From Planctomycetota bacterium (GTDB lineage: Bacteria > Planctomycetota > UBA1135 > UBA2386), in NCBI GenBank assembly GCA_027621295.1, contig JAQCBR010000129.1, positions 1 through 11,814 on the forward strand: DNA of 11,814 bases, given 5' to 3'. Shown here in pieces: positions 1 to 11,814 of the stretch. Made by a program: the position numbers and the translations under genes. The first letter of the stretch is position 1, and each line of letters starts with the position of its first letter. The notes beneath the pieces are model-generated. The model saw only the letters and a list, made by a program, of their open reading frames with translations, made no database searches and was not told where the DNA came from.

Positions 1-74
1 GTGGGCTGGGCCGGATGTCGGCGGCGGTGCGCTCCGCTGCCGACGCCGGGCTCCCGCTGTCGATCCGCGGCTGA
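1..74 (+). CDS. Probable 3' end of an upstream CDS running off the window start (reading frame starts at base 3; ...GLGRMSAAVRSAADAGLPLSIRG*, TGA at 72..74)
   Basis: Frame 3 shows near-exclusive G/C at third codon positions (strong coding signal for this genome); the other two frames do not. The in-frame stop at 72..74 precedes the next gene. No product assignable from 24 residues. Confidence 0.3.
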   Translation, partial: GLGRMSAAVRSAADAGLPLSIRG

Positions 75-140
75 GCGGGCGCGGGGTTTGGGTGTGGTCG
101 GCCGCCTGGAGGCGGTTACCGTGACGCGCTCGCGCGCCGC

Positions 141-2156
141 ATGGCCGGCGCAGCCGCTCTCCCTCCATCGCAATCGATCCGCATGCTCACCGGACACCCG
201 AAGGGGCTCTACCGCCTGTTCTTCATCGAGATGTGGGAACGCCTGGCCTTCTACACGATGGTCGGGATCCTGCTGCTCTACGCGACCGACACCGAGACCG
301 GCGGGCTCGGGTGGTCGAGCGACGTGGGGAACGAGATCTACGGGCTCTACCTCGCGTTCGTGTACTTCACGCCCTACCTGGGCGGGCTGTTGGCGGACCG
401 GTTCCTCGGCTATCGGCGGTCGGTGCTGATCGGTGGCCTTCTGTTCGCGACGGGCTTCTTCATGCTCGCGTCGGGACAGAAGTGGGCGTTCCCGACCGGG
501 CTCGTCTTCCTCTGCTGCGGGAACGGCTTCTTCAAGCCGAACATCTCGGCGATGGTCGGCAACCTCTACGAGAAGGGGGATCCGAAGCGCGACGCCGGGT
601 TCAACATCTTCTACATGGGGATCAACATCGGCGCGTTCATCGCCAACTTCCTGGCGGCGATCATGCGCAACCAGTGGGCGTGGTACGCGGTCTTCGTCGC
701 GGCCGGCGTCGGCATGCTGATCTCGGTCGTGATCCTGCTGTCGAGCTGGAAGGTGCTCGAGAAGGCGGACGTCGAGCCCGGCAACAAGCCGGGTGACACG
801 CCGTTCGCCGAGATCATGCAGAAGATCCTCGGGCCTGCGCTCGTGCTCGGCGTGATCGGCTGGGCGTTCGCGGCCTACGTGCTGCCGCCGTCGGTCACGA
901 AGCTCGTCAAGGCGACCGACATCGGCTTCCTGATCGGCTCGATCCCGATCCTGCGCTTCTTCGTGCGGCTGTCGCACCAGGCGAAGGAGGAGGAGAAGCC
1001 CGGTCTGCGTGCGCTGCTGCCGATCTACCTCGCGGGCGGGACGTTCTTCATGGTGCTGCACCTGAACGGCAGCGCGATGACCACCTGGGCGAACGAGAAC
1101 ACGGCCCGTCAGCTCGGGCAGTCGGACCCGATCTGTCTGATCGCGGATGCGGTGTGGGTGAAGGGTGACCCGGTCTTCGCGCAGGACGCGCTGCCCGGCT
1201 ACTACGGCAACGCGGCCGACGACCTGCCGCGTCCCAACAAGCTGACGCTGTTCGGTGGCGGGACCGACGAGCAGGCGACGATGTTCGGCAAGAAGAAGAT
1301 GGATGCGGCCAGTCTGGAGGCCCTCACCGCGAATCTGCCGAGCGACGTCCGCGTCGAGGCACTGCCGATCGGGGCCGAGCTGACCGACGAGCAGCGCCGC
1401 TGGAAGAAGTACAGCGTCGACATCTACGACAAGGTCGAGATCAAGGAGGGCACCGACAGCCACGGGCTCCCGAAGATCAGCGTCGAGGTCGCCGACGGCG
1501 CGCCGATCCAGAAGCGCGTCGCGTTCGTCCGCGAGAACGGCGAGGCCGGCGGTGACTACGCGACCTACGTGACCACGCAGGACAAGTTCGACGCGCTCTA
1601 CGTCGAGGGGGCGACCGAGCTCGAGCCGGGGCGCTACGTCCAGCTCGCCAACGCCGAGCTCTACCAGTCGTGGAATGCGTTCTTCGTCGTGCTGTTCACG
1701 CCGCTCGTGATGATGTTCTTCGCGTGGGCTTCGCGACGTCAGATCGACTTCAGCACCGCGCGCAAGATCCTCGCGGGCATGGTCATCACCGCGATCGCCG
1801 CTGCCTTCATGGCGATGGCGGGATTCGTCAGCGACAACGGCGCGGTCAAGGTCAGCGGCATGTGGCTGATGGGCTTCTACGCGATCATCACGGTCGGCGA
1901 GCTGTTCCTGTCGCCGATGGCGCTGTCGCTGGTCACCAAGCTGACGCCCAAGCGCTTCGTCGGGCTGACGATGGGCGGCTGGTTCTTCGCGACCGCCGTC
2001 GGAAACAAGTTCAGCGGGTTCCTCGGCGTGCTGCAGGGAGCGATGGAGCCGGCGATGTTCTTCCTGGTCATCGTCGGGGCGGCCGTCGCGGTGGCGGCCT
2101 ACATCCTGTCGGTGCTGCCGAAGCTCGACGAGGCGATCAAGAAGTACGGGGCGTGA
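141..2156 (+). CDS. Proton-dependent oligopeptide transporter (POT/PTR2 family, DtpT-like di/tripeptide permease) with an ~190-aa hydrophilic insertion
   Basis: The N-terminus reads HPKGLYRLFFIEMWERLAFYTMVGILLLY, matching the PTR2 family signature (FxxEMWERFSYYGM). About 12-14 predicted TM helices follow, with typical POT motifs (GGLLADRFLG, FKPNISAMVG). Start could be ATG 141 or in-frame ATG 183 (MLTGHPKG...); neither has a strong SD. A large hydrophilic block (~aa 320-515) interrupts the C-terminal helix bundle. Confidence 0.9.
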   Translation: MAGAAALPPSQSIRMLTGHPKGLYRLFFIEMWERLAFYTMVGILLLYATDTETGGLGWSSDVGNEIYGLYLAFVYFTPYLGGLLADRFLGYRRSVLIGGLLFATGFFMLASGQKWAFPTGLVFLCCGNGFFKPNISAMVGNLYEKGDPKRDAGFNIFYMGINIGAFIANFLAAIMRNQWAWYAVFVAAGVGMLISVVILLSSWKVLEKADVEPGNKPGDTPFAEIMQKILGPALVLGVIGWAFAAYVLPPSVTKLVKATDIGFLIGSIPILRFFVRLSHQAKEEEKPGLRALLPIYLAGGTFFMVLHLNGSAMTTWANENTARQLGQSDPICLIADAVWVKGDPVFAQDALPGYYGNAADDLPRPNKLTLFGGGTDEQATMFGKKKMDAASLEALTANLPSDVRVEALPIGAELTDEQRRWKKYSVDIYDKVEIKEGTDSHGLPKISVEVADGAPIQKRVAFVRENGEAGGDYATYVTTQDKFDALYVEGATELEPGRYVQLANAELYQSWNAFFVVLFTPLVMMFFAWASRRQIDFSTARKILAGMVITAIAAAFMAMAGFVSDNGAVKVSGMWLMGFYAIITVGELFLSPMALSLVTKLTPKRFVGLTMGGWFFATAVGNKFSGFLGVLQGAMEPAMFFLVIVGAAVAVAAYILSVLPKLDEAIKKYGA

Positions 2157-2165
2157 CCGACGGGC

Positions 2166-2387
2166 TCAGGTCCGCGCGTCGTCGTGCTGATCTTCGGGCT
2201 GTTCTGACGGCGCGGTATTTCCCTGGACGGGGGGCACCCGCCGTCCGCGGCGCCTGAGCGCGTCGCGGAGCAGCCACTCGATCTGGCCGTTGAGGCTTCG
2301 CATCTCCTCGGCCGACCACGCTCGCAGCTCCTCGAGGAGCTCGGGCGGGACGCGGAGCAGGAAGCCCTTTTTGGGTTTGGGTGCCAA
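2166..2387 (-). CDS. Arc/MetJ-type ribbon-helix-helix DNA-binding protein (Arc family), 73 aa, TTG start
   Basis: Translation MAPKPKKGFLLRVPPELLEELRAWSAEEMRSLNGQIEWLLRDAL is the canonical Arc-family N-terminal beta-strand + two helices (K-G-F-L-L-R-x-P-x-E-L; RSLNxxIExLL), followed by a disordered acidic tail. Start is TTG at 2387, 16 nt downstream of the SPFH stop (likely co-transcribed). No obvious SD. Confidence 0.72.
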   Translation of the reverse strand: MAPKPKKGFLLRVPPELLEELRAWSAEEMRSLNGQIEWLLRDALRRRGRRVPPVQGNTAPSEQPEDQHDDART

Positions 2388-2403
2388 GGGGCCGGTCGCG
2401 ATC

Positions 2404-3306
2404 TCAGTGGTAGATGGTGCCGGTGTTGACGACCGGCTGCGTGCCGCGCTCCGAGCAGAGCACGACGAGCAGGTTCTGGACCATCGCGGCCTTGCGCTCC
2501 TCGTCGAGCTCGACGACCCCGCCGGTCTTCAGCTCGTCGAGGGCCATCCGCACCATGCCGACCGCGCCGTCCACGATGCGGGTCCGGGCCGCGATGATCG
2601 CGTCCGCCTGCTGGCGCTGGAGCATCGCGCTCGCGATCTCGGGCGCGTAGGCGAGATGGGCGAGGCGCGCCTCGAGCACTTCGATGCCGGCCATGTCGAG
2701 CCGTTCGGTCAGCTCGCGCGCGAGCTCCTGGCTGACGACGTCGGCACTGCCGCGGAGCGAGGTCTCGCCGGGCCGGGCATCGTCCGCGTCGTACGGGTGG
2801 TTGGCCGCGAGCGTCCGCAGCGCGGACTCGGTCTGCACCTCGACGTACGACTCGTAGTCCTCGACGTCGAACTGGGCCTGGGCGGTGTCGCGGACCCGCC
2901 AGACGACGACGGCGCCGATCTCGATCGGGTTGCCGACCTTGTCGTTCACCTTCAGCCGGTCGCTGTTGAAGTTGTGCGCGCGCAGCGAGACGTCGCGTCG
3001 CACCGTGAACGGGTTGACCGCGAAGAACCCGTCGCGCCGGAGCGAGCCCTTGTACTTCCCGAACAGCAGGATCACCTTGCTGTGGTTCGGGTTGATGAGC
3101 GTCAGGCTGGCGATCATCAGGGCGAACGCGAGCACGCAGCCGAGGCCGGTGAGGAGCGGGGTCAGGAAGGGCTCGTCGGCCTTGCCGTGGATGATCGCCA
3201 TCACGATCCGCCAGATCCCGATGCCGAGGGTGGCGATCGCCAGGATCAGCGTCGGGATGCCGGGGAGGGCGCCGCGGTAGGGGAGTTCTCGGGAGCGTGA
3301 CTGCAT
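2404..3306 (-). CDS. SPFH/Band-7 (stomatin/prohibitin/flotillin/HflK-C superfamily) membrane protein, 300 aa
   Basis: Two N-terminal hydrophobic helices ([23 protein letters not shown]; [21 protein letters not shown]) precede a typical SPFH core ([61 protein letters not shown]...). A coiled-coil-like Ala/Gln-rich C-terminus follows. The annotated 487-aa ORF is trimmed to ATG at 3306: the 187 upstream residues are Arg/Pro/Gly-rich wrong-frame sequence overlapping the helicase gene. AAGG lies ~10 nt upstream of the ATG. Confidence 0.88.
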
Positions 3307-3330
3307 CGTCGGACCTGGCCTTGGGAAAGA

Positions 3331-3354
3331 TTGCAGGATGATATCTTCATGCAA
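3331..3354. promoter_or_regulatory. Imperfect 24-bp palindrome TTGCAgGAtGATATCtTCaTGCAA in the only AT-rich patch of the window, in the helicase-SPFH spacer: candidate operator/promoter element
   Basis: Sequence 3331..3354 has perfectly inverted outer arms (TTGCA / TGCAA) and an inner GATATC core, with one mismatch per side. The local GC is ~45% against ~70% background. It sits 25-48 bp upstream of the SPFH ATG (3306), and TTGCAT resembles a -35 hexamer. Confidence 0.4.
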
Positions 3355-3404
3355 CTGTGGCGGGGCCGCCGAGTTTCGCGGGGTGGCTGGACTCCCGGTG
3401 GGGC

Positions 3405-5363
3405 TCAGCCGTGCTCGTCGACCGCGCCCTCGGGGAGCGCGGCGAGGAAGTCCCGGCCGTATCGCTTGGTCCGCGCCCGGGGGTCGAGGATCACGACCTC
3501 GCCGCGGTCGCCCGCCGTCCGGACGAGGCGGCCGAAGCCCTGGCGGAACTTCAGGATCGCCTCGGGCAGCGTCTGCTCGAGGAACGCATCCCCACCGCGC
3601 GCCTGGATCATCCGCTGGCGGGCCATGGTCAGCGGGTGGTCCGGCTGGCCGAACGGCAGGCGGGTCAGGAAGACGAGCGTCAGCGCATCCCCCGGCACGT
3701 CGATCCCTTCCCAGAAGGTCTCGGTCCCGAGCAGCACGGTGGACGGGTCCTCGCGCTTCCGGCGCAGCAGGTCGCGCATCGGCGCCTCGCCCTGGACCAG
3801 GAGCTCGATGCCGCGCTGGGCCAGCGGGCCGCGCAGCGCGTCGGCGAGCCGGCGGACGAAGTTCCATGACGTGCAGAGCACGAGGGCTGAGCCGCCGTTG
3901 CGGATGGTCCGCGTCTGGATCTCACGCCGGCACGCATCGAAGAAGCCCTGCGGGTCGCCGGACGGGTCCGGCACGTCGACGGGCAGCGTTACTGTCACCT
4001 GGCTCCGGTAGTCGAACGGGGAGCCGAGCCGGAGGGTCTCGACCCGCTCGTGCGCGCCGAGTCGATCGCGGATCCAGCGGAAGCCGGGGTCGCCGCCCGG
4101 ACCGAGCGTCGCCGACACCAGGATGTTGCAGCGGGGCTCGCCGAACTGGTGCTTCTGCAGCGCCTCCGACACGTCGAGGGGCGCCGCCCGAAGGCTGACC
4201 CCGCGCTTCTCCTGCTCGATCCAGCGGACCTTGTCGACGGAGCCCGGGCCGCAAAGGCTCAGGAATACCGCGTGCAGCGAAGTCAGCCCGCGCGCGCGCG
4301 CCTGCAGCTCGGTGCGGAGGTCGACCTTCTCGACGCCGAGCGCGCAGCGGTGGATCTCGGCGGCCAGCTCGGCGAGGAGCTCGGACACCGGGTCTTCGAC
4401 GAGGTCGTCGGGCTCGAGTGGCAGGGTCCCGTTGCCGCGGAGCCGCGCTTCGAGGAGCGCGAAGAACGCCTCCGCCGCCTGGCGCACCTGCTCGAGCAGC
4501 AGCATCGCGTGCGGGTTCCCGTACTCGGCCAGCAGGCTGCGCCGCGACCGGCGGGGGTGCAGGCGCTTCACGTGCCAGAGGACGGAGCCGAGCGTCAGCC
4601 GGAGCCCGAGGCTCTCGGTCGCGATCCGCTCGAGATGGTGGGCCTCGTCGAAGATCGCGATCCGGTGATCGGGCAGGTAGCTCGCCCCGGCCATGCGCAG
4701 CGCGACGTCCGCCATGTACAGCGCATGGTTGACGACGACGATCTGCGCGGAGTCGAGGCGGCGCCGGGACCGCTGGTACGGGCAGTCGTCGTAGTGGGGG
4801 CAGGCCTTGTAGAGGCAGTTGCCGTGCTCGGCCTTCACCTCCTCCCAGACCTCGTCGTCGACGGGCTCCGGGAGCTCGAAGCGCAGCCCGTCCCGCGACG
4901 ACTGGGCCCAGTGCACGACCCGGTTCAGCTGCGCCTCGCGGTGAAGGTCGTCGAAGACGACGCCGCGCTCGCGGTGCGCGAGGTGCATCCGGCGGTGGCA
5001 GATGTAGTGGTTGCGGCCGACGGCGGAGACCGCGGTCCACTCCATCGGCGTGACCGCCTGCAGGAACGGGAGGTCCTTCCGCTCCAGCTGCTCCTGCAGC
5101 GCGATCGTCCGGGTCGACACGATGATCGGACCCTGGCCGCGGTGGGAGACCGCGTGCAGCAGCGCGGGCAGCAGGTAGGCGAACGACTTGCCGACGCCCG
5201 TTCCCGCCTCGGCGAACAGGTGGCGGCCCTCGCGGAGCGCGTGCTCGATCGCGCGCGCGAGCTCGACCTGCTCCGGCCGCTCCTCGTAGCCGGGAAGCCG
5301 CCGCGCGATCACGCCCTCGGGCCCGAGGAACGCGTCGAGGGTGATCGGGTCCGGCGTGCTCAC
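3405..5363 (-). CDS. dinG: ATP-dependent DNA helicase, DinG/XPD (Rad3-related) family with 4Fe-4S domain, 652 aa
   Basis: Walker A is [18 protein letters not shown]. Four Cys lie between Walker A and B (YICHRR ... [15 protein letters not shown]), the Fe-S cluster signature of DinG/XPD. DEAH box is IFDEAHHL. C-terminal helicase motifs are LVLCTSWNF and [29 protein letters not shown]. The start is set to GTG at 5363 because (i) the 238 upstream residues of the 890-aa ORF are low-complexity R/P-rich and overlap the neighbouring gene, (ii) the GTG overlaps that gene's TGA (GTGA), and (iii) GGAG lies 12 nt upstream. The resulting N-terminus ([42 protein letters not shown]) looks like a native DinG N-terminus. 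Confidence 0.88.
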
Positions 5364-6130
5364 TTCAGGAAGTCGCTCCGGTGCGCGAGACGGCTGGAGC
5401 GGGGCCTCGCCGTGTCGTGGAGGACCGGCAGCGTGGTCGCTTCGCTCTCGATCCGGGCGCCGAGCGGCGTGTGGAGGCCGACCCAGTGTCGGGCGCGGTG
5501 GGTGTTCCGCGTCTCGTCGTCGAACTCGTAGGACACGCGCCGTTGGGGTGGGTACGCGCCGGGGACCGGACGGTGGTCGAGGACCCTGGCGAGGGTCAGT
5601 CGCCCCTGGCTCAGCAGCAGGCGCTGCCCGAACGCGCCGCGGAGGTAGATCCCGAGGACGAACAGCCCGGGGAGGCCAGCCAGTCGGAGCCAGCGAGAGA
5701 ACGGGGACCACGGCGGTGCGCGGTGGGAGCCCTCGATCCTCGCGAGCTCGGGCGCGTGGGGCAGGAACTCGATCCGGACATCGGTCCCGACGGCAGGCGG
5801 GCGGACTTCGGGTGGGACGAAGGACGAGGCCTCGACCTGCGCGTCGCCCGGCCGCGGCTCGAACCGGAACGTGATCCGAGCACCTCCGCCGCCGGGCCAG
5901 TCGTCCGGTGCGCTCGCCACGACCTTCCCGGTCGTGCGCGACGAAGATGCATCGAGCGCGTCGTCGCCGAGCGGGAGCACGTCCCGGGCATTCGCGAGGA
6001 ACAGGATCGCACCGGCGATCGCGGGCAGCACGAGGACGGCGGCGAGGACGCCCAGGGGCCAACCCCTGCGGAGCCATGCCCCCGCCCGCGGCCGTCGCGG
6101 GGCCGCGGGGAAACCGTCCAGATCGCCCAT
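5360..6130 (-). CDS. Double-pass membrane protein with two TM + small beta-rich domain repeats (DUF3592-like architecture), paralog B, 256 aa
   Basis: MGDLDGFPAAPRRPRAGAWLRRGWPLGVLAAVLVLPAIAGAILFLA is TM1, followed by a beta-rich domain (GKVVASAP...ARITFRFEPRPG...VGTDVRIEFLP...RIEGS). TM2 is LRLAGLPGLFVLGIYL, followed by a second small domain (RRVSYEFDDETRNTHRARHW). Start is trimmed to ATG 6130 (AAGG SD 6 nt upstream, 11 nt after the stop of the upstream paralog). Clearly paralogous to 6142..7053. Its stop overlaps the helicase start. Confidence 0.7.
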   Translation of the reverse strand: MGDLDGFPAAPRRPRAGAWLRRGWPLGVLAAVLVLPAIAGAILFLANARDVLPLGDDALDASSSRTTGKVVASAPDDWPGGGGARITFRFEPRPGDAQVEASSFVPPEVRPPAVGTDVRIEFLPHAPELARIEGSHRAPPWSPFSRWLRLAGLPGLFVLGIYLRGAFGQRLLLSQGRLTLARVLDHRPVPGAYPPQRRVSYEFDDETRNTHRARHWVGLHTPLGARIESEATTLPVLHDTARPRSSRLAHRSDFLK

Positions 6131-6141
6131 GTCCCGCCCTT

Positions 6142-7053
6142 CTAGCCCAGCCAGGCGTGGGGCGGAAGCGCGCGGGAGGTCGATGCGGATGGAGCGAAGT
6201 CGGACGCGGCGACGAGACGGTTGGCCTGGGGCCGCTTGCGGTCGTGGATCACGCAGAGTCGCGGCAGGTCGGACGAACGGACAGTCTGCCACTCGGTCGG
6301 AACGACGGGCGCGAGGCCGCGCTTGGGGGTCCAGAGCACGCGGGGCGCGGTGGGAGGGCGTGCGGCGGCGACCGACATTCGCTCGCCGAGCTCCGAGCGG
6401 GCGAGCAGCCAGTGCCGCCCCTCGCGGACGTTCGCCGAACGATCGCGGAACCGGAACCGGACCTCGAGCATCGACGGGATCATGAACGGGACGCGTCGTA
6501 CCTCGACCGGCTCGGCGATCGCGACGTCGCCATCGCGCAGCACGCGGCGCAGCCGCAGCACCGACGCGAGCCAGAGGATCAGCAGGCCGGCGCCCGGGAC
6601 GACCGTCGACCAGAACGCGGTCCCGGTCGCGTCCATCGGTTGGACGAGCGATCCGCCGAGCACCCGGCTGTCGCCGGTCCGCGCCGAGTACTCGATCTCG
6701 ACCTCATCGCCCACCCGGTGCGCGCCCGGCGTGAAGAAGCTCGCGCCCTCCTGCGGGACTCCGTCGTCGGCCGCGAAGCGGAACCGTACGAGGTCCATTG
6801 CATCCCCTCGCCAGCTGGACCGGGGGGCGACTGCGGTCACGGTGCCGACGAGGACCTCGCGTTCCCGGTCGAGTGTACGGTCGGCCTCCGTGTAGTACGA
6901 GCCGCGGTCGGAGATCCACAGCAGCAGCGTCAGCACGCCGCCGTAGACCAGCAGCACGGCTCCGGCGAGGCACATCCCGAACGCCCGCCAGACCACCGCG
7001 CGCGCGCGCACGTCGCGGGGTGCCGGCGGGATGTCGCGGAGCTCGAGAGCCAT
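6142..7053 (-). CDS. Double-pass membrane protein with two TM + small beta-rich domain repeats (DUF3592-like architecture), paralog A, 303 aa
   Basis: MALELRDIPPAPRDVRARAVVWRAFGMCLAGAVLLVYGGVLTLLLWI is TM1, followed by a beta-rich domain (LVGTVTAVAP...LVRFRFAADDG...VGDEVEIEYSARTGDSRVLGGS). TM2 is GAGLLILWLASVL, followed by a second domain (EVRFRFRDRSANVREGRHWLLARSELGERMS). Motif order matches paralog B (PAPR...W.R; TFRF/VRFRF; RHW; C-terminal LPxL..HD..RP..RL..SDF). AGGA/GGAGG lies 9-15 nt upstream of the ATG. Confidence 0.7.
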   Translation of the reverse strand: MALELRDIPPAPRDVRARAVVWRAFGMCLAGAVLLVYGGVLTLLLWISDRGSYYTEADRTLDREREVLVGTVTAVAPRSSWRGDAMDLVRFRFAADDGVPQEGASFFTPGAHRVGDEVEIEYSARTGDSRVLGGSLVQPMDATGTAFWSTVVPGAGLLILWLASVLRLRRVLRDGDVAIAEPVEVRRVPFMIPSMLEVRFRFRDRSANVREGRHWLLARSELGERMSVAAARPPTAPRVLWTPKRGLAPVVPTEWQTVRSSDLPRLCVIHDRKRPQANRLVAASDFAPSASTSRALPPHAWLG

Positions 7054-7093
7054 GGAGCCATCCTAGCCTCCACAGACCGCTGCGGGGGCGCTG

Positions 7094-7109
7094 GCGATCC
7101 TTGCATCGC
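7094..7109. promoter_or_regulatory. Short inverted repeat GCGAT-ccttgc-ATCGC containing TTGCAT in the divergent intergenic region between paralog A and pfp
   Basis: Seen directly in the 148-bp divergent spacer 7054..7201. Function unknown. Confidence 0.2.
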
Positions 7110-7201
7110 GCCCGAGCGCCCAAGACCATCTCGATCCCCTCGGCGAGCCGCAACCGACGGCCGAGCCGCGCGCCCGATCCCCTCCCTCCCGTCTCCGATC
7201 C

Positions 7202-8506
7202 ATGACCCAGGTCTTCGACCGTCCCACGACTCCCGCCCACCGCTACGACCGCGTGGCGATCCTCTTCTCCGGGGGGCCCGCACCGGCCGCGAACGCGGTG
7301 ATCTCGTCGGCGGCCGTGTCCTTCCTGCGCAACGGGACGAGCGTCGTCGGCATCAAGAACGGCTACTCGAAGCTCGTCGAGTTCGGGCCGGATCGCCCGT
7401 TGGTCGAGGGCCGCGACTACCAGCTCCTCGACCACAAGGCGCTGCGGCGGACCCGGAATCGCCCCGGAATCATGGTCGGCACCGCGCGGACCAACCCGGC
7501 CAAGCAGGTCCGGGAGCCAGCCCATCTCGACGACGCCGAGCGGACGGCGCCGCTGCGCACGGTCTACGAGGCGCTGCGCTCGATCGGCGTCGATGCGCTG
7601 ATCTCGATCGGCGGCGACGACACGCTGAAGACCGCGAACATCTTCCGAGCATGGCAGGATCGGCTGCCGAGCACCGAGCGCCGCATCTCCGTCGTCCACG
7701 TCCCGAAGACGATCGACAACGACTACAACGGCATCGACTTCACGTTCGGATACTTCACCGCCGTCGACACGCTGGCCGGACTGATCCGCAACCTGCTGTT
7801 CGACGCGGAGGCGACGCAGGCCTACTTCCTCGTCGAGTCGATGGGGCGCAGCGCTGGCTGGCTGGCCTACGGGGCTGCGATCGCCGGCGAAGCGAGCCTC
7901 GTGATCGGCGTCGAGGACATCCGCGACGACATGCGGACGACCGAGGAGATGGTCGACCCGAACACCGGGGAGACGAGCGTGCGCTCGATCATGAACATCG
8001 AGGCGGTCGTCGAGCACATCGTCGAGGTGATGATCGCGCGTGAGGACGAGGGCAAGGACTACGGGGTGATCGTCCTCGCCGAAGGTCTCGCCGAGCTCCT
8101 GCCTTCGGAGCGCCTCCAGAAGGTCGGCCGCGACGACCACGGTCACATCTCGATCGGGTCGCTGAACCTGTCGCGGATGTTCGAGAAGCTCGTGCCCGAC
8201 GCCTACGCGGAGCGCACCGGGCGTGAGCGCAAGGTGAAGGGCGTCCAGCTCGGCTACGAGGCCCGCTGCGCGGCGCCCCACGCGTTCGACGTCGTGCTCG
8301 GCAGCCAGCTCGGTGTCGGCGCCTACCGTGCGCTGGCGGAGAAGGGGCTCGACCGCGTGATGATCTCGGTCATCGGCCAGCTCGACCTCCAGTACGTCGA
8401 CTTCGCGAAGCTCGTCGACCCGAACACGCTGAAGACCGTCGTCCGGCTGATCGAGCCGGGCAGCGACTTCCACCGGCTGGCCCGGCTGCTCGAGACGTAC
8501 CACTGA
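7202..8506 (+). CDS. pfp: 6-phosphofructokinase, PFK-A family; active-site residues predict pyrophosphate-dependent type (PPi-PFK), 434 aa
   Basis: PFK-A motifs are present: RVAILFSGGPAPAANAVI (GGxxPGxN-like nucleotide loop), ISIGGDDTL and PKTIDNDY. Established knowledge: ATP-PFKs carry GGDGS and PGTIDND, whereas PPi-PFKs carry Asp and Lys at these two positions (E. coli Gly104/Gly124 equivalents). Here both are the PPi-type (GGDD, PKTIDND). Confidence 0.9.
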   Translation: MTQVFDRPTTPAHRYDRVAILFSGGPAPAANAVISSAAVSFLRNGTSVVGIKNGYSKLVEFGPDRPLVEGRDYQLLDHKALRRTRNRPGIMVGTARTNPAKQVREPAHLDDAERTAPLRTVYEALRSIGVDALISIGGDDTLKTANIFRAWQDRLPSTERRISVVHVPKTIDNDYNGIDFTFGYFTAVDTLAGLIRNLLFDAEATQAYFLVESMGRSAGWLAYGAAIAGEASLVIGVEDIRDDMRTTEEMVDPNTGETSVRSIMNIEAVVEHIVEVMIAREDEGKDYGVIVLAEGLAELLPSERLQKVGRDDHGHISIGSLNLSRMFEKLVPDAYAERTGRERKVKGVQLGYEARCAAPHAFDVVLGSQLGVGAYRALAEKGLDRVMISVIGQLDLQYVDFAKLVDPNTLKTVVRLIEPGSDFHRLARLLETYH

Positions 8507-8514
8507 CGGTACGC

Positions 8515-8540
8515 GCGGCGCCTTTGCTCCCGAGCGCCGC
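8515..8540. terminator. GC-rich inverted repeat GCGGCGC-N12-GCGCCGC between convergent pfp and CRTAC1-family genes: possible bidirectional terminator hairpin
   Basis: The 7-bp perfect stem lies in the 40-nt convergent gap 8507..8546. No U-tract follows on either strand, which is common in high-GC genomes but weakens the call. Confidence 0.2.
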
Positions 8541-8546
8541 CGCCGG

Positions 8547-10415
8547 TCACTGGATGGTGATCGTCACCGCGTCCGGGAACACGTTGCGGACGCCCGGGTA
8601 GCCGGCGGGATCGAGCACGATCGCAGTTGCGCGCAGCGTGATTCCGGACAGGAACGGCAGGTTCGGGATCGTCAGCGCCGAAGTCGCGGCGGTTCCGTTC
8701 GCGGGGATCGTGCCGAGCGGCGTCGGCAGCAGCAGGTTGCCGACGCCCAGCGCGTAGACGGTCAGCGAGTCGACCTGGATCGGCAGCGTCAGGCCGTTGG
8801 GGAGCGGCGTGGTCCCGGCCGGCGACGCCGACAGGAACATCAGGTAGGGCAGGCCCGCGTCGTTCGGCGACGCGAGGCGGAGCCCCGCCGTCGTGCCGAC
8901 CTGCGGCACGCCGACGAGGTCGAAGCGCGGCTCGACGATGTCGACGACCTGGTCGACGGCCACGCCCGTCAGGTGCTGCTCGGTGCCGGAAGGCCAGCGG
9001 ACGAGGATCTCGTCGACAGTCGTCGCCGCGCCGAGCCCGAACTGCAGCCGGCGGTCGTTGCCGGTCTTGTAGCCGATGCCGCTCCGGACCCACTGGCGCT
9101 GCACGTGGCTGCTGGTGCGGACCGTCACGCGTGCGCCGAAGCCGTCCCGGTTGCTGACCGTGCCCTCGGTTCGGACCTTCAGCCAGTGGCCGCGCGAGAC
9201 GTTGTTCCGGTAGACCTGGACCGGCTGCGGGTTGCCGAGGAAGCGGTCGAAGTTGAAGCGCTCGACCAGGTCGACGCCGCCGTCCTCGTCGAGGTCGACC
9301 GGGACCGCCGCATACTGGCCGTAGAAGCTCGAGATCCCGAGCGGGAACGAGACGTCCGTCCACGGACCCGGCGCCGACGTGCCCGGGTGCCGGAACAGCT
9401 GGTTGGGCGCCGCGTAGTGGACGACGTGCAGGTCCTGCCAGCCGTCGTTGTCGTAGTCGAACCAGTGCGTCGACCAACCGAGGCTGATGCCCGACAGCCC
9501 GTAGGTGTAGGTGTCGTCGACGTAGACCTGCGCGTTCGGGTCCCACTGCAGGAACAGGTGATCGCTCGGGCTGTCCGTGCAGAAGATGTCGACCCCGCCG
9601 TCGCAGAACACGTCGAGGAAGTCGACGCCCATGCCGTCGATGGCCTGGTTGCAGTTGATCTGCGCGCCAATGTCCGCGAACGTCCCGTCGCCGAGGTTCC
9701 GGAACATCGTGTTGGGCACGCCGTTGTTGCCCTTGTCGTTCGCGATGTAGAGGTCGGGCCAGCCGTCCTCGTCGTAGTCGATGAACGGAGCGACGAGCGT
9801 CAGGCCGAGGTGGTCGACGCCGGCCGCGGTGCCGACCTCGACGAAGCCCGTGCCGCCGAGGTTGCGGAACAGGTAGTTGACCTCGCCGAGGCTCGTCGAC
9901 GCGGTCTGGCGGTTGCCGACGTAGACGTCGGTGAAGCCGTCGCGGTCGTAGTCGCCGAACGACAGGCTGAACACCGACGACGACGAGTTGATGCCGAGTG
10001 CGGGCGCCTGGTCGACGAAGCGGCCGGTCCCGTCGTTCACGTAGAGCTGGAGCGGCGTGCGCCAGTTGCCGACCAGCACGTCCTGGTCGCCGTCGTTGTC
10101 GAAGTCGAACGCGCCGATCGCCGCGGGCGCGCCCGCGATGCCGAGGCCCGACACCGCGGTGTCATCGGTGAATTGGAGGTTCCCCTGGTTGCGGAACAGC
10201 CGGACCGTCAGGCCGCCGGCGTCGGGCATGACCAGGTCGACGTCCCCGTCCCCGTCCACGTCCACGCACGCGAAGCCGGTCCCGTAGGCCGTCGTCGTGT
10301 TCTGCAGGCCCGTGACCCCGGCGCGGGCGGTGAGGTCGGTGAACCCCTGGCCCAGGGCGAGGGACGAGCAGACGGCGCAGGCGGCCGCCGACCGGAGAGC
10401 GCGGATTCGAGACAT
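8547..10415 (-). CDS. Secreted CRTAC1-family protein: signal peptide + multiple FG-GAP/VCBS beta-propeller repeats + C-terminal ASPIC/UnbV domain, 622 aa
   Basis: N-terminal signal peptide MSRIRALRSAAACAVCSSLALGQG. Repeated Ca-binding-like DxDxDGxxD motifs follow (DVDGDGDVD, DFDNDGDQD, DYDRDGFTD, DYDEDGWPD, DYDNDGWQD, DLDEDGGVD) with FRN/LFRN repeats typical of FG-GAP blades. C-terminal GHWLKVRTEGTVSNRDGFGARVTV is the ASPIC/UnbV signature. Confidence 0.85.
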   Translation of the reverse strand: MSRIRALRSAAACAVCSSLALGQGFTDLTARAGVTGLQNTTTAYGTGFACVDVDGDGDVDLVMPDAGGLTVRLFRNQGNLQFTDDTAVSGLGIAGAPAAIGAFDFDNDGDQDVLVGNWRTPLQLYVNDGTGRFVDQAPALGINSSSSVFSLSFGDYDRDGFTDVYVGNRQTASTSLGEVNYLFRNLGGTGFVEVGTAAGVDHLGLTLVAPFIDYDEDGWPDLYIANDKGNNGVPNTMFRNLGDGTFADIGAQINCNQAIDGMGVDFLDVFCDGGVDIFCTDSPSDHLFLQWDPNAQVYVDDTYTYGLSGISLGWSTHWFDYDNDGWQDLHVVHYAAPNQLFRHPGTSAPGPWTDVSFPLGISSFYGQYAAVPVDLDEDGGVDLVERFNFDRFLGNPQPVQVYRNNVSRGHWLKVRTEGTVSNRDGFGARVTVRTSSHVQRQWVRSGIGYKTGNDRRLQFGLGAATTVDEILVRWPSGTEQHLTGVAVDQVVDIVEPRFDLVGVPQVGTTAGLRLASPNDAGLPYLMFLSASPAGTTPLPNGLTLPIQVDSLTVYALGVGNLLLPTPLGTIPANGTAATSALTIPNLPFLSGITLRATAIVLDPAGYPGVRNVFPDAVTITIQ

Positions 10416-10428
10416 GAGGTCGGTCGAA

Positions 10429-10461
10429 TAGACTCGGAGAGTCTACCCCGCAACGCCGGGG
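10429..10461. promoter_or_regulatory. Two adjacent inverted repeats directly upstream of the CRTAC1-family gene start
   Basis: TAGACTC-gga-GAGTCTA (10429..10445; 7-bp perfect arms) and CCCCG-caacgc-CGGGG (10446..10461). The first begins 14 nt from the ATG at 10415. No SD is apparent. Confidence 0.3.
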
Positions 10462-10570
10462 CGGCCGGGCGAGGTCGGCGCGGTCTCTGGGTTCGCGGCC
10501 AGCCATCGGCGGATCCGTGCGCCATCGACGGCGCGGGCCCGGGGACCACAGCGCCGGTGCCATGGGTGGT

Positions 10571-10954
10571 TCAGCCTTCGTCCGCGGACCGGCCGACGCC
10601 CCTCGCCAGCAGGATCCAGCCGGCGATCAAGAGGACCCCGCCGATCGGCGTGACCGCGCCGAGCCAGCGAGGCCCGGTGACCGCGAGGAAGTACAGCGTG
10701 CCCGAGAACACCGCGGTCCCGGCGAGGAACGCCTGGGCGGCCTTCTCCGCACCCCTCTCACCGAGCGAGGCCCGCCACGCGCAGGCGAGCAGGGCGAGCG
10801 CGTGGAAGAACTGGTAGCGGACCGCGATCTCGAACGTGTCGGCGGTGCCGCGCTCGTCGAGAAGGGCCTCGAGCCCGTGCGCGCCGAACGCGCCGAGGGC
10901 GACCGCGAGGCCGGCGACCAACGCGCCGGACTGGAAGATCCGTTCTGGGGTCAT
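10571..10954 (-). CDS. DUF423 (YgdD/TMEM256-like) small inner-membrane protein, 127 aa
   Basis: ALVAGLAVALGAFGAHGLEALL...AVRYQFFHALALLA matches the DUF423 hallmark (GAFGAHGL ... YQ.YHAL.LL). Four predicted TM helices. The ATG at 10954 lies 7 nt after the kinase stop (likely co-transcribed). Confidence 0.8.
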   Translation of the reverse strand: MTPERIFQSGALVAGLAVALGAFGAHGLEALLDERGTADTFEIAVRYQFFHALALLACAWRASLGERGAEKAAQAFLAGTAVFSGTLYFLAVTGPRWLGAVTPIGGVLLIAGWILLARGVGRSADEG

Positions 10955-10961
10955 CGGGGAT

Positions 10962-11814
10962 TCAGGCCTTCGGGTAGGTCGCGTTCAGTGCGGTGACCGC
11001 CTCGTCGTAGCGGCAGCGGACCTCGGCGTAGCGCTCGATGTGTTCGGCCGACGCCGTCACGTCGACGAGTCCGCGATCGAGGTCGAGGGACGCGCGGCAC
11101 GCGTGGAGCGAGAGGTCGGACTCGCCTTTTGCCCGCCGCCACGTCCAGAGCGCCTGGACCGCGGCGCCCATCGCGGCCGCATCCGCATCGACGCCGGCGC
11201 GGACCGGCACGCTGGTGACCGCGGCGACGACTTCACGCCACGTCTGGCTGTGGCTCCCGCCGCCGGTAAGCCTCAGCTCGTCGATCCGGACGTCGAGCGC
11301 GCGGAGCCGGTCGAGCAGACGGCCGAGCGCGAGCGTCGCACCCTCCATCGCCGCGCGCGCGAAGTGGGCCTGCGTCGTCGTGGTCGGGCGGAGTCCGAGG
11401 AAGCCCGCGGTCGCGGTCGGCAGGTCGGGGCTCCGCTCCCCGGTGAAGAACGGCACGCAGAGCACGCCGTCGCTGCCGCAGGGGACCGACGCGGCCGCAC
11501 GTTCGAAGGCGTCGAGGTCCAGCCCGAACAGTCCGCGGACCACCTCGGTCGCGACGGTGGCGTTCATCGTGCAGCCGAGCGGGAGCCAGCCGCCGGCGCT
11601 GCCGCAGAACGGTGCGATCTCGCCCTCGGGGTCGCAGACCGGCGCGTCGGCGTGCGCGAACACGGTCCCCGACGTGCCGAGGCTCAGCACCGCGACGCCG
11701 GTCGCGACCGCGCCGGCACCGAGGGCTGCCGCCATGTTGTCGCCGGCTCCCGCCGCGACGAGGACGTCGTCGCCGAGCCCGAGCTCGGCCGCGAGCTCGG
11801 GGCGGAGCGTGCCG
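10962..11814 (-). CDS. FGGY-family carbohydrate kinase (xylulokinase/glycerol-kinase-like), C-terminal portion; 5' end lies beyond the window end
   Basis: GTSGTVFAHADAP ... FLGLRPTTTTQAHFARAAMEGATLALGRLLDRLRALDVRIDELRLTGGGSHSQTWREVVAAVTSVPV matches the FGGY C-terminal domain (GTS.. ; GGG(A/S)xSxxWxQ(I/V)xAD(V/I)xxxPV). The reading frame stays open to the window edge (…LRPELAAELGLGDDVLVAAGAGDNMAAALGAG…). Confidence 0.85.
   Translation of the reverse strand, partial: GTLRPELAAELGLGDDVLVAAGAGDNMAAALGAGAVATGVAVLSLGTSGTVFAHADAPVCDPEGEIAPFCGSAGGWLPLGCTMNATVATEVVRGLFGLDLDAFERAAASVPCGSDGVLCVPFFTGERSPDLPTATAGFLGLRPTTTTQAHFARAAMEGATLALGRLLDRLRALDVRIDELRLTGGGSHSQTWREVVAAVTSVPVRAGVDADAAAMGAAVQALWTWRRAKGESDLSLHACRASLDLDRGLVDVTASAEHIERYAEVRCRYDEAVTALNATYPKA

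Follow-up and report, generated by a model that had tools for sequence, protein, structure and literature searches.

Gene organization around two tandem paralogs

The window analysed here is an 11,814-nt stretch of DNA from a Planctomycetota bacterium (GenBank assembly GCA_027621295.1, contig JAQCBR010000129.1, positions 1 to 11,814; GTDB lineage Bacteria, Planctomycetota, UBA1135, UBA2386), with a GC content of 67 to 73%. Its minus strand carries a co-oriented row of genes comprising two paralogs, here called gene A and gene B, a gene for a predicted iron-sulfur (Fe-S) helicase of the YoaA/DinG family, an SPFH/Band_7 gene, and a small Arc/ribbon-helix-helix-like open reading frame (ORF). Gene A, the upstream or A-type paralog, runs from an ATG at 7053 to 6142 and, as read from the ORF and its translation, encodes a 303-aa tandem-DUF3592-like membrane protein; gene B, the downstream or B-type paralog, runs from an ATG at 6130 to 5360 and encodes 256 aa. 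The 11-nt spacer between the two contains the purine-rich sequence AAGGGCGGG. The helicase gene (5363 to 3405; 652 aa; Pfam Helicase_C_2, DEAD, and DEAD_2) starts with a GTG lying on the TGA stop of gene B, giving the overlap GTGA at 5360-5363. Inspection of the letters without database searches (the sequence-only reading) had proposed that the helicase is coupled to the paralogs, and this overlap, together with the recurrence of an overlap at the same junction in related loci, supports that proposal.

In DNA of such high GC content, mechanical ORFs extend upstream of true starts and so produce spurious long overlaps that are supported by neither gene callers nor homolog alignments. Mechanically, the helicase ORF spans 3405-6077 on the minus strand (890 aa instead of 652 aa) and that of gene B spans 5360-6292 on the same strand (310 aa instead of 256 aa). 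The longer ORF of gene B, starting from a GTG at 6292, was set aside because it overlaps gene A. Gene callers reproduced the 303-, 256-, 652-, and 300-aa calls (the last being the Band_7 gene) on four independent public contigs encoding an identical B protein. A promoter and terminator scan of 2300-7300 returned no match, and such a scan is uninformative in a planctomycete of 70% GC.

Architecture and ancestry of the A and B proteins

A and B are full-length tandem paralogs. As the sequence-only reading had claimed, they align end to end (BLASTP, 26% identity over 287 columns, E 4e-20), with one 33-column gap corresponding to extra residues of A in its second domain, and the similarity holds for each half taken separately (N-terminal halves, E 9e-12; C-terminal halves, E 3e-13). 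Both are two-pass inner-membrane proteins in which a short, Arg-rich N-terminal segment is followed by a first transmembrane (TM) helix, a beta domain, a second TM helix, and a second beta domain. Kyte-Doolittle profiles (19-residue window) peak at residues 25-47 (2.3) and 144-166 (1.8) in A and at residues 24-46 (up to 2.75) and, weakly, about 143-165 (1.45) in B; the two TM helices per protein that had been proposed are thus seen in both profiles, weakly for the second helix of B, and again as helices in an AlphaFold2 model of A. This model, built on the family alignment described below, is confident (mean predicted local distance difference test score [pLDDT] 90.1; predicted TM-score 0.78), as is a separate model of domain 2 of B (pLDDT 94.6). 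In the model of A, a helix at residues 25-51/53-63 leads into five strands within residues 66-131 and a second helix at residues 142-174, after which come strands within residues 176-217, a helix at residues 221-231, a poorly predicted insertion, and further strands within residues 266-281. Neither hydropathy nor the model places a trailing TM helix after domain 2 of A.

On the DNA, always on the minus strand, the N-terminal motif IPPAPRDVR of A (residues 8-16; 7006-7032), predicted to be cytoplasmic, is followed by TM helix 1 (residues 25-47; 6913-6981), domain 1 (residues ~62-135; 6649-6870; modelled strands 66-79, 85-94, 100-107, 117-122, and 129-131), TM helix 2 (residues 144-166; 6556-6624), and domain 2 (residues 175-288; 6190-6531), with its tail DLPRLCVIHDRKRPQANRLVAASDF (residues 262-286; 6196-6270; strands 266-270 and 278-281). 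Both domains appear DUF3592-like, the first acidic and the second basic and OB-like (oligonucleotide/oligosaccharide binding). The poorly predicted insertion in domain 2 (residues 228-265; 6259-6372; pLDDT 54-69) is a lineage-specific block of about 38 residues found only in A and its closest relatives P0006 and P0007 and missing from B and most of the family. In B, the motif FPAAPRRPR (residues 7-15; 6086-6112), which BLASTP aligns with the A motif and which is kept in the B orthologs P0002 to P0004, precedes TM helix 1 (residues 24-46; 5993-6061), domain 1 (residues ~62-135; 5726-5947; net charge -4), TM helix 2 (residues ~143-165; 5636-5704), and domain 2 (residues 166-256; 5363-5635), an OB-fold-like barrel in the model that includes the tail LPVLHDTARPRSSRLAHRSDF (5369-5431); domain 1 and TM helix 2 align with their counterparts in A. 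The N-terminal motif, which the sequence-only reading had given only as an alignment, is a further conserved feature of the subfamily: among 25 A-type sequences it has the consensus [IVLF]-P-P-x-P-R-x-[VP]-R, in which P9, P10, and R13 are invariant, and IPPAPR is found in nearly all A-type genes that lie next to helicases.

Across 96 family members, the mean net charge is +3.0 for the N-terminal segment, -2.3 for domain 1, and +5.5 for domain 2, and in protein A the two domains reach -6 and +11, respectively. Lys and Arg together average 3.5 in the 15-residue flank before TM helix 1, 1.4 after it, and 3.0 after TM helix 2. Under the positive-inside rule, basic flanks of TM helices face the cytoplasm, and the observed charge distribution suggests that the N terminus and the basic domain 2 are cytoplasmic and that the acidic domain 1 lies in the periplasm.

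The sequence-only reading had also suggested that each protein is internally duplicated. Compared pairwise within each protein, the two halves gave no significant BLASTP match (best E 0.16 to 0.4). Since pairwise BLASTP is blind to a duplication of this kind, the family was collected and profiles of the two halves were built. Word-index homology searches recovered few relatives (5 and 11 matches); an exhaustive phmmer search with A against 1.84 billion cluster representatives found 133 proteins at an E value of at most 1e-3 (80 at 1e-10 or below), mostly of 250 to 280 aa and matched over their full length. The profiles of the halves, the charge means, and the Pfam scan of relatives were based on a 96-sequence alignment of the family. 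Profiles of the first and second halves match one another with an hhalign probability of 97.8% (E 7.8e-13, 93 columns), superposing TM helix 1 and domain 1 on TM helix 2 and domain 2, and with the TM helices removed, domain 1 still matches domain 2 (97.5%, E 7.2e-12). The VRFRF motifs that had been read as echoing one another do pair in this alignment, LVRFRFAADDG of domain 1 with EVRFRFRDRSA of domain 2. Thirty column-shuffled domain 2 profiles reached at most 1.9% probability (best E 0.026) and a reversed profile reached 0.6%. The profile match and the failure of these controls argue that the doubled TM and beta-domain unit is a real and ancient internal duplication, detectable at the profile level only; the proposal thus stands for profiles and fails for the pairwise comparison of half-repeats.

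A resemblance to DUF3592 proteins, likewise noted from the letters, was borne out by Pfam searches through intermediates. Protein A has no PF12158 match at an E value of 1 or below, and protein B matches PF12158 below the gathering threshold (17.3 bits against 25.3; E 0.0079), with residues 182-251 covering positions 9-82 of the 84-position profile. PF12158 is matched at an E value of at most 0.01 by 28 of the 96 aligned relatives (best 1.4e-15), and no other family recurs. When five relatives were split in halves, all five first halves matched PF12158, and both halves did so in P0103 (21 to 23 bits) and P0108 (30.6 and 31.7 bits, above the gathering threshold), which were found by phmmer with A and are the two most distant of the five. 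One relative already carries the NCBI label "DUF3592 domain-containing protein." By these profile matches, A and B are members of a divergent, clade-specific tandem-DUF3592 subfamily, linked to PF12158 via intermediates and individually below the Pfam threshold. The subfamily was previously unannotated or generically labelled, and we found no description of a tandem DUF3592 protein or of its helicase link in the literature searched. Assignment of protein A to the Rv1733c family was rejected as nonsignificant (NCBIfam, 15 bits against a cutoff of 80).

The related C-terminal tails of A and B had been noticed in the sequence, and homologues confirm them: the consensus V-[VI]-H-D-x3-P-x3-R-L-V-x3-D-F is strongly conserved across the family. 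The further idea that this tail is a distinct docking motif placed just before the helicase did not hold up. The tail of B lies inside its sub-threshold PF12158 match; the tail segment RLCVIHDRKRPQANRLVA of domain 2 pairs in hhalign with the end of domain 1, EVEIEYSARTGDSRVLG (VEIEY...SRVLGG); in the modelled barrel of B domain 2, the tail makes up strands 4 and 5 (model residues 68-73 and 81-83); and A, whose gene does not adjoin that of the helicase, has the tail just as B does. The alignments and the model therefore describe the tail not as an appendage or a separate docking peptide but as the strand pair that closes the second DUF3592 domain. The terminal D-F, whose Phe is invariant in 46 sequences, is the only part of the tail specific to domain 2 of the helicase-linked subfamily.

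Foldseek comparison of the domain 2 model with the PDB gave nothing significant (E of at least 0.1, TM-score of at most 0.53), in a list dominated by CsaA, SSB, PriB, and RPA. Proteins named under the fold of this barrel are the PheRS beta B2 domain, DNA-ligase OB domains, eIF1A, eIF5A, S1, Mop domains, and the OB rings of proteasomal ATPases. Nor did profile comparison with PDB sequences reveal a relative of solved structure; the best match (Mediator Med11, E 0.025) was taken as chance. The models suggest that domain 2 is an OB-like barrel without a specific solved relative.

In a neighbour-joining tree of the locus-derived proteins, the A-type clade comprises all upstream copies and most single copies, and the B-type clade comprises all downstream copies and the single copy of locus L014. 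This distribution fits one old gene duplication with a fixed order, A then B, and later loss of B in many genomes. The timing of the duplication is uncertain, since midpoint rooting could be misled by faster evolution in the B clade. Shortened B-type copies occur in L007 (7891-8427, 180 aa), L018 (5128-5562, 144 aa), and L021 (5448-5999, 183 aa); many genomes lack the downstream B-type copy, and L014 retains a B-type copy only (8001-8771). Together, these observations suggest relaxed or shifting constraint on the second paralog.

Conserved linkage to a YoaA/DinG-family helicase

The best NCBIfam model for the helicase is YoaA (NF053712), at 514.3 bits and below the equivalog cutoff of 680, with DinG models next. 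In seven orthologs, the invariant sites include the Walker A motif G54-T55-G56-x-G58-K59-S60, the DEAH box D239-E240-A241-H242, and the cysteines C122, C183, C188, and C194. By domain content (DEAD_2 and Helicase_C_2), Walker A motif, DEAH box, and four Cys residues, the protein belongs to the XPD/DinG Fe-S superfamily, and as judged by its profile scores it is a YoaA/DinG-family member and not a certified YoaA ortholog.

Viewed from the family proteins, all eight distinct contexts have one or two family genes immediately upstream of the helicase, even with relatives only 30 to 36% identical to A. The link was also surveyed from the helicase side, using 80 loci on contigs from one genome per species, ranked by helicase similarity, whose six-frame ORFs were scanned with the family hidden Markov model. 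In 19 of these 80 loci, all titled or automatically named within the Planctomycetota, the helicase scores at least 742 bits (53 to 67% identity), and a clear gap separates this clade from the next best helicase, at 571 bits. One of the 19 loci is cut off at the helicase, and the counts refer to the other 18. In 17 of these 18 species-level genomes, the helicase gene is immediately preceded, in the same orientation, by one or two family genes. The 61 loci with helicases at or below 571 bits include other Planctomycetota (Pirellula and Phycisphaerae) as well as many further phyla, and in none of them did the scan detect a family gene within 6 kb. In most linked loci the stop codon of the family gene lies inside GTGA, ATGA, or TTGA, consistent with an overlapping helicase start. 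Overall, the family genes are co-oriented and translationally coupled with the helicase gene, in an arrangement conserved across the helicase clade.

Compared with unlinked helicases, the partner-linked helicases have 37 clade-specific conserved positions, no group-specific insertions, and a C terminus about 8 residues shorter. A cluster of these positions at about 225-277 (A225, Y229, R234, R246, E250, W263, H264, H269, R271, S276, and L277) flanks the DEAH box at 239-242 and is a candidate surface, nothing more.

Downstream of the helicase, still on the minus strand, lies the SPFH/Band_7 gene (~3306 to 2404; Pfam Band_7, E 2.8e-21; called as 300 aa on the public contigs). It is frequent and not constant in the related loci, being absent from L014, L022, L026, L027, L029, and L033. 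Directly after it in the window comes the 73-aa ORF at 2387 to 2166 (minus strand; MAPKPKKGFLLRVPPELLEELRAWSAEEMRSLNGQIEWLLRDAL...), which probably encodes a ribbon-helix-helix regulator closing the gene row; the gene at the equivalent position in L005, L007, L009, and L012 matches Pfam Arc/RHH_5. On the other side, a phosphofructokinase (PFK) gene starts at 7202, divergent from the row headed by gene A. Between the DUF423 and PFK genes, a minus-strand gene at 8547-10415 encodes a 622-aa FG-GAP/ASPIC-UnbV repeat protein; it is missing from L005 and L006, which are otherwise syntenic, and represents an insertion or deletion inside conserved synteny.

A possible membrane accessory of the helicase

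We propose, at a probability of about one half, that A and B are membrane-bound subunits of the helicase that assist or anchor it. Genomes with a single copy would have a homo-oligomer of the membrane protein and genomes with two copies an A/B hetero-oligomer, and the oligomer would serve as an accessory or anchor for the YoaA/DinG-family enzyme. The predicted cytoplasmic domain 2, the N-terminal motif, or both might touch the helicase and perhaps also single-stranded nucleic acid. In E. coli, YoaA acts in a complex with its partner chi (PMC9826845, PMC12122834, and PMC8378479). That E. coli YoaA works with a small partner makes a lineage-specific partner plausible here, by analogy of role and not by homology, and the role envisaged for A and B loosely resembles that of chi (HolC), the obligatory partner of E. 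coli YoaA.

Several points weigh against this proposal. The case for a partnership is one of gene order, the predicted topology depends on the positive-inside rule, and we know of no characterised precedent for a membrane partner of a DNA-repair helicase. One locus of the helicase clade, L020 (1-1917), has no family gene upstream of its helicase, and in L009 and L027 a gap of about 80 to 110 nt replaces the overlap at the junction. The wider neighbourhood (PFK, DUF423, an FGGY kinase, a PTR2 transporter, and Band_7) is also syntenic in the clade, and part of the co-occurrence may therefore reflect simple vertical inheritance. The place of the family gene in L020 is taken by a 471-aa Pro/Gly-rich ORF on the opposite strand.

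A rival reading is that A and B are generic, uncharacterised DUF3592 envelope proteins, co-transcribed with the helicase through inherited gene order and sharing no joint function with it. This explanation, which we regard as somewhat unlikely, gains from the broad synteny of about 10 kb across the same genomes, from L020, and from the unrelated contexts in which DUF3592 proteins occur elsewhere: next to GntR, next to an unrelated 517-aa gene, in a type VII secretion system LXG locus, where the protein is transmembrane and its function unclear (PMC12482557), and as a predicted cofactor of MptB in mycobacteria (bioRxiv 10.64898/2026.07.15.738315). It accounts less well for a start/stop overlap that is kept while helicases diverge to 53 to 67% identity and family proteins to 30 to 45%, or for a pairing that survives a change of both flanks, as in L014, where the family gene and helicase stay together without Band_7 and with a transposase upstream. 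The linked subfamily also has conserved, predicted cytoplasmic features that are missing from distant unlinked relatives, namely the PPxPR motif, the basic domain 2, and the terminal D-F. Two distant tandem-DUF3592 proteins without PPxPR and D-F are not next to a helicase. One distant tandem-DUF3592 protein, P0103 (L097, 34-1244), overlaps by 4 nt an upstream gene for a GntR-family regulator, a different conserved-looking pairing for the same architecture.

The prevalence of Band_7 genes raises another possibility. NfeD proteins partner SPFH proteins in NfeD-SPFH operons, and A and B could be NfeD-like proteins that bind or regulate the SPFH/Band_7 protein encoded two genes downstream of them. 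A Band_7 gene comes after the helicase gene here and in the majority of related loci, and the TM helices and small OB-like barrel of A and B resemble those of short NfeD proteins. NfeD (PF01957) gave neither a sequence match nor a top structural match for A or B; the reading was downgraded, and we consider it improbable. Lower still do we rate a two- or three-gene antiphage or abortive-infection module in which a DinG-like helicase senses foreign DNA and the membrane proteins act as effectors. The combination of a helicase and small TM proteins occurs in many defence systems, and this helicase matches the PADLOC models of type IV CRISPR DinG (E 2e-118), but it is closest to housekeeping YoaA/DinG, A and B have no PADLOC match at an E value of at most 0.1, and no integrases, other defence genes, CRISPR, or Cas genes lie nearby. 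The defence reading was rejected because of the missing PADLOC matches of A and B and because of the genomic setting, a conserved core synteny with metabolic genes that is vertically inherited in the clade.

If A and B are indeed an accessory of the helicase, a bolder and rather doubtful extension would make the helicase a membrane-tethered machine, in which the tandem OB-fold protein (A, or A with B) replaces chi-like soluble partners and holds the helicase, perhaps together with single-stranded DNA, at the inner membrane, and the periplasmic domain could couple its activity to the state of the envelope. DUF3592 is a widespread membrane family without an assigned function, and the subfamily described here supplies it with a concrete genomic partner, a translationally coupled Fe-S DNA helicase; the structural reading would put one OB-like barrel on each side of the membrane. 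Should the association be physical, a replication- or repair-type helicase would, unusually, be anchored to the membrane, and the locus would illustrate how partners are acquired by YoaA-like helicases in lineages that may do without chi. Otherwise, the locus is a lineage-specific operon of hypothetical membrane proteins.

Among known systems, YoaA-chi offers a parallel in role. The coupled helicase is closest to YoaA among curated families and has the XPD/DinG Fe-S features, and YoaA is known to act together with a small accessory protein. The differences are that chi, a soluble subunit of the clamp loader, has no relation to DUF3592, that the coupled helicase scores 514 bits against the 680 required of a YoaA equivalog, and that for A and B the partner role is read from gene order only. 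NfeD-SPFH clusters share with this locus the presence of membrane-anchored small OB-like barrel proteins in a gene cluster with an SPFH/Band_7 protein; here, in contrast, the Band_7 gene is separated from them by the helicase gene and is dispensable for the family-helicase pairing. OB-fold nucleic-acid-binding domains (the CsaA/Trbp111-type tRNA-binding domain and SSB/PriB) are also among the closest systems. The nearest family remains DUF3592 (PF12158) itself, with which A and B share a TM helix followed by a beta domain of about 80 residues and a closing strand pair of the V-x-V-x-[YH]-D-x3-P-x3-[RS]-x-L type. Unlike DUF3592, A and B carry this unit doubled in one polypeptide (TM-domain-TM-domain), and their strongly basic domain 2 has diverged beyond what Pfam usually detects; to this architecture the helicase-linked subfamily adds the N-terminal PPxPR motif, the terminal D-F, and a fixed position upstream of the helicase.

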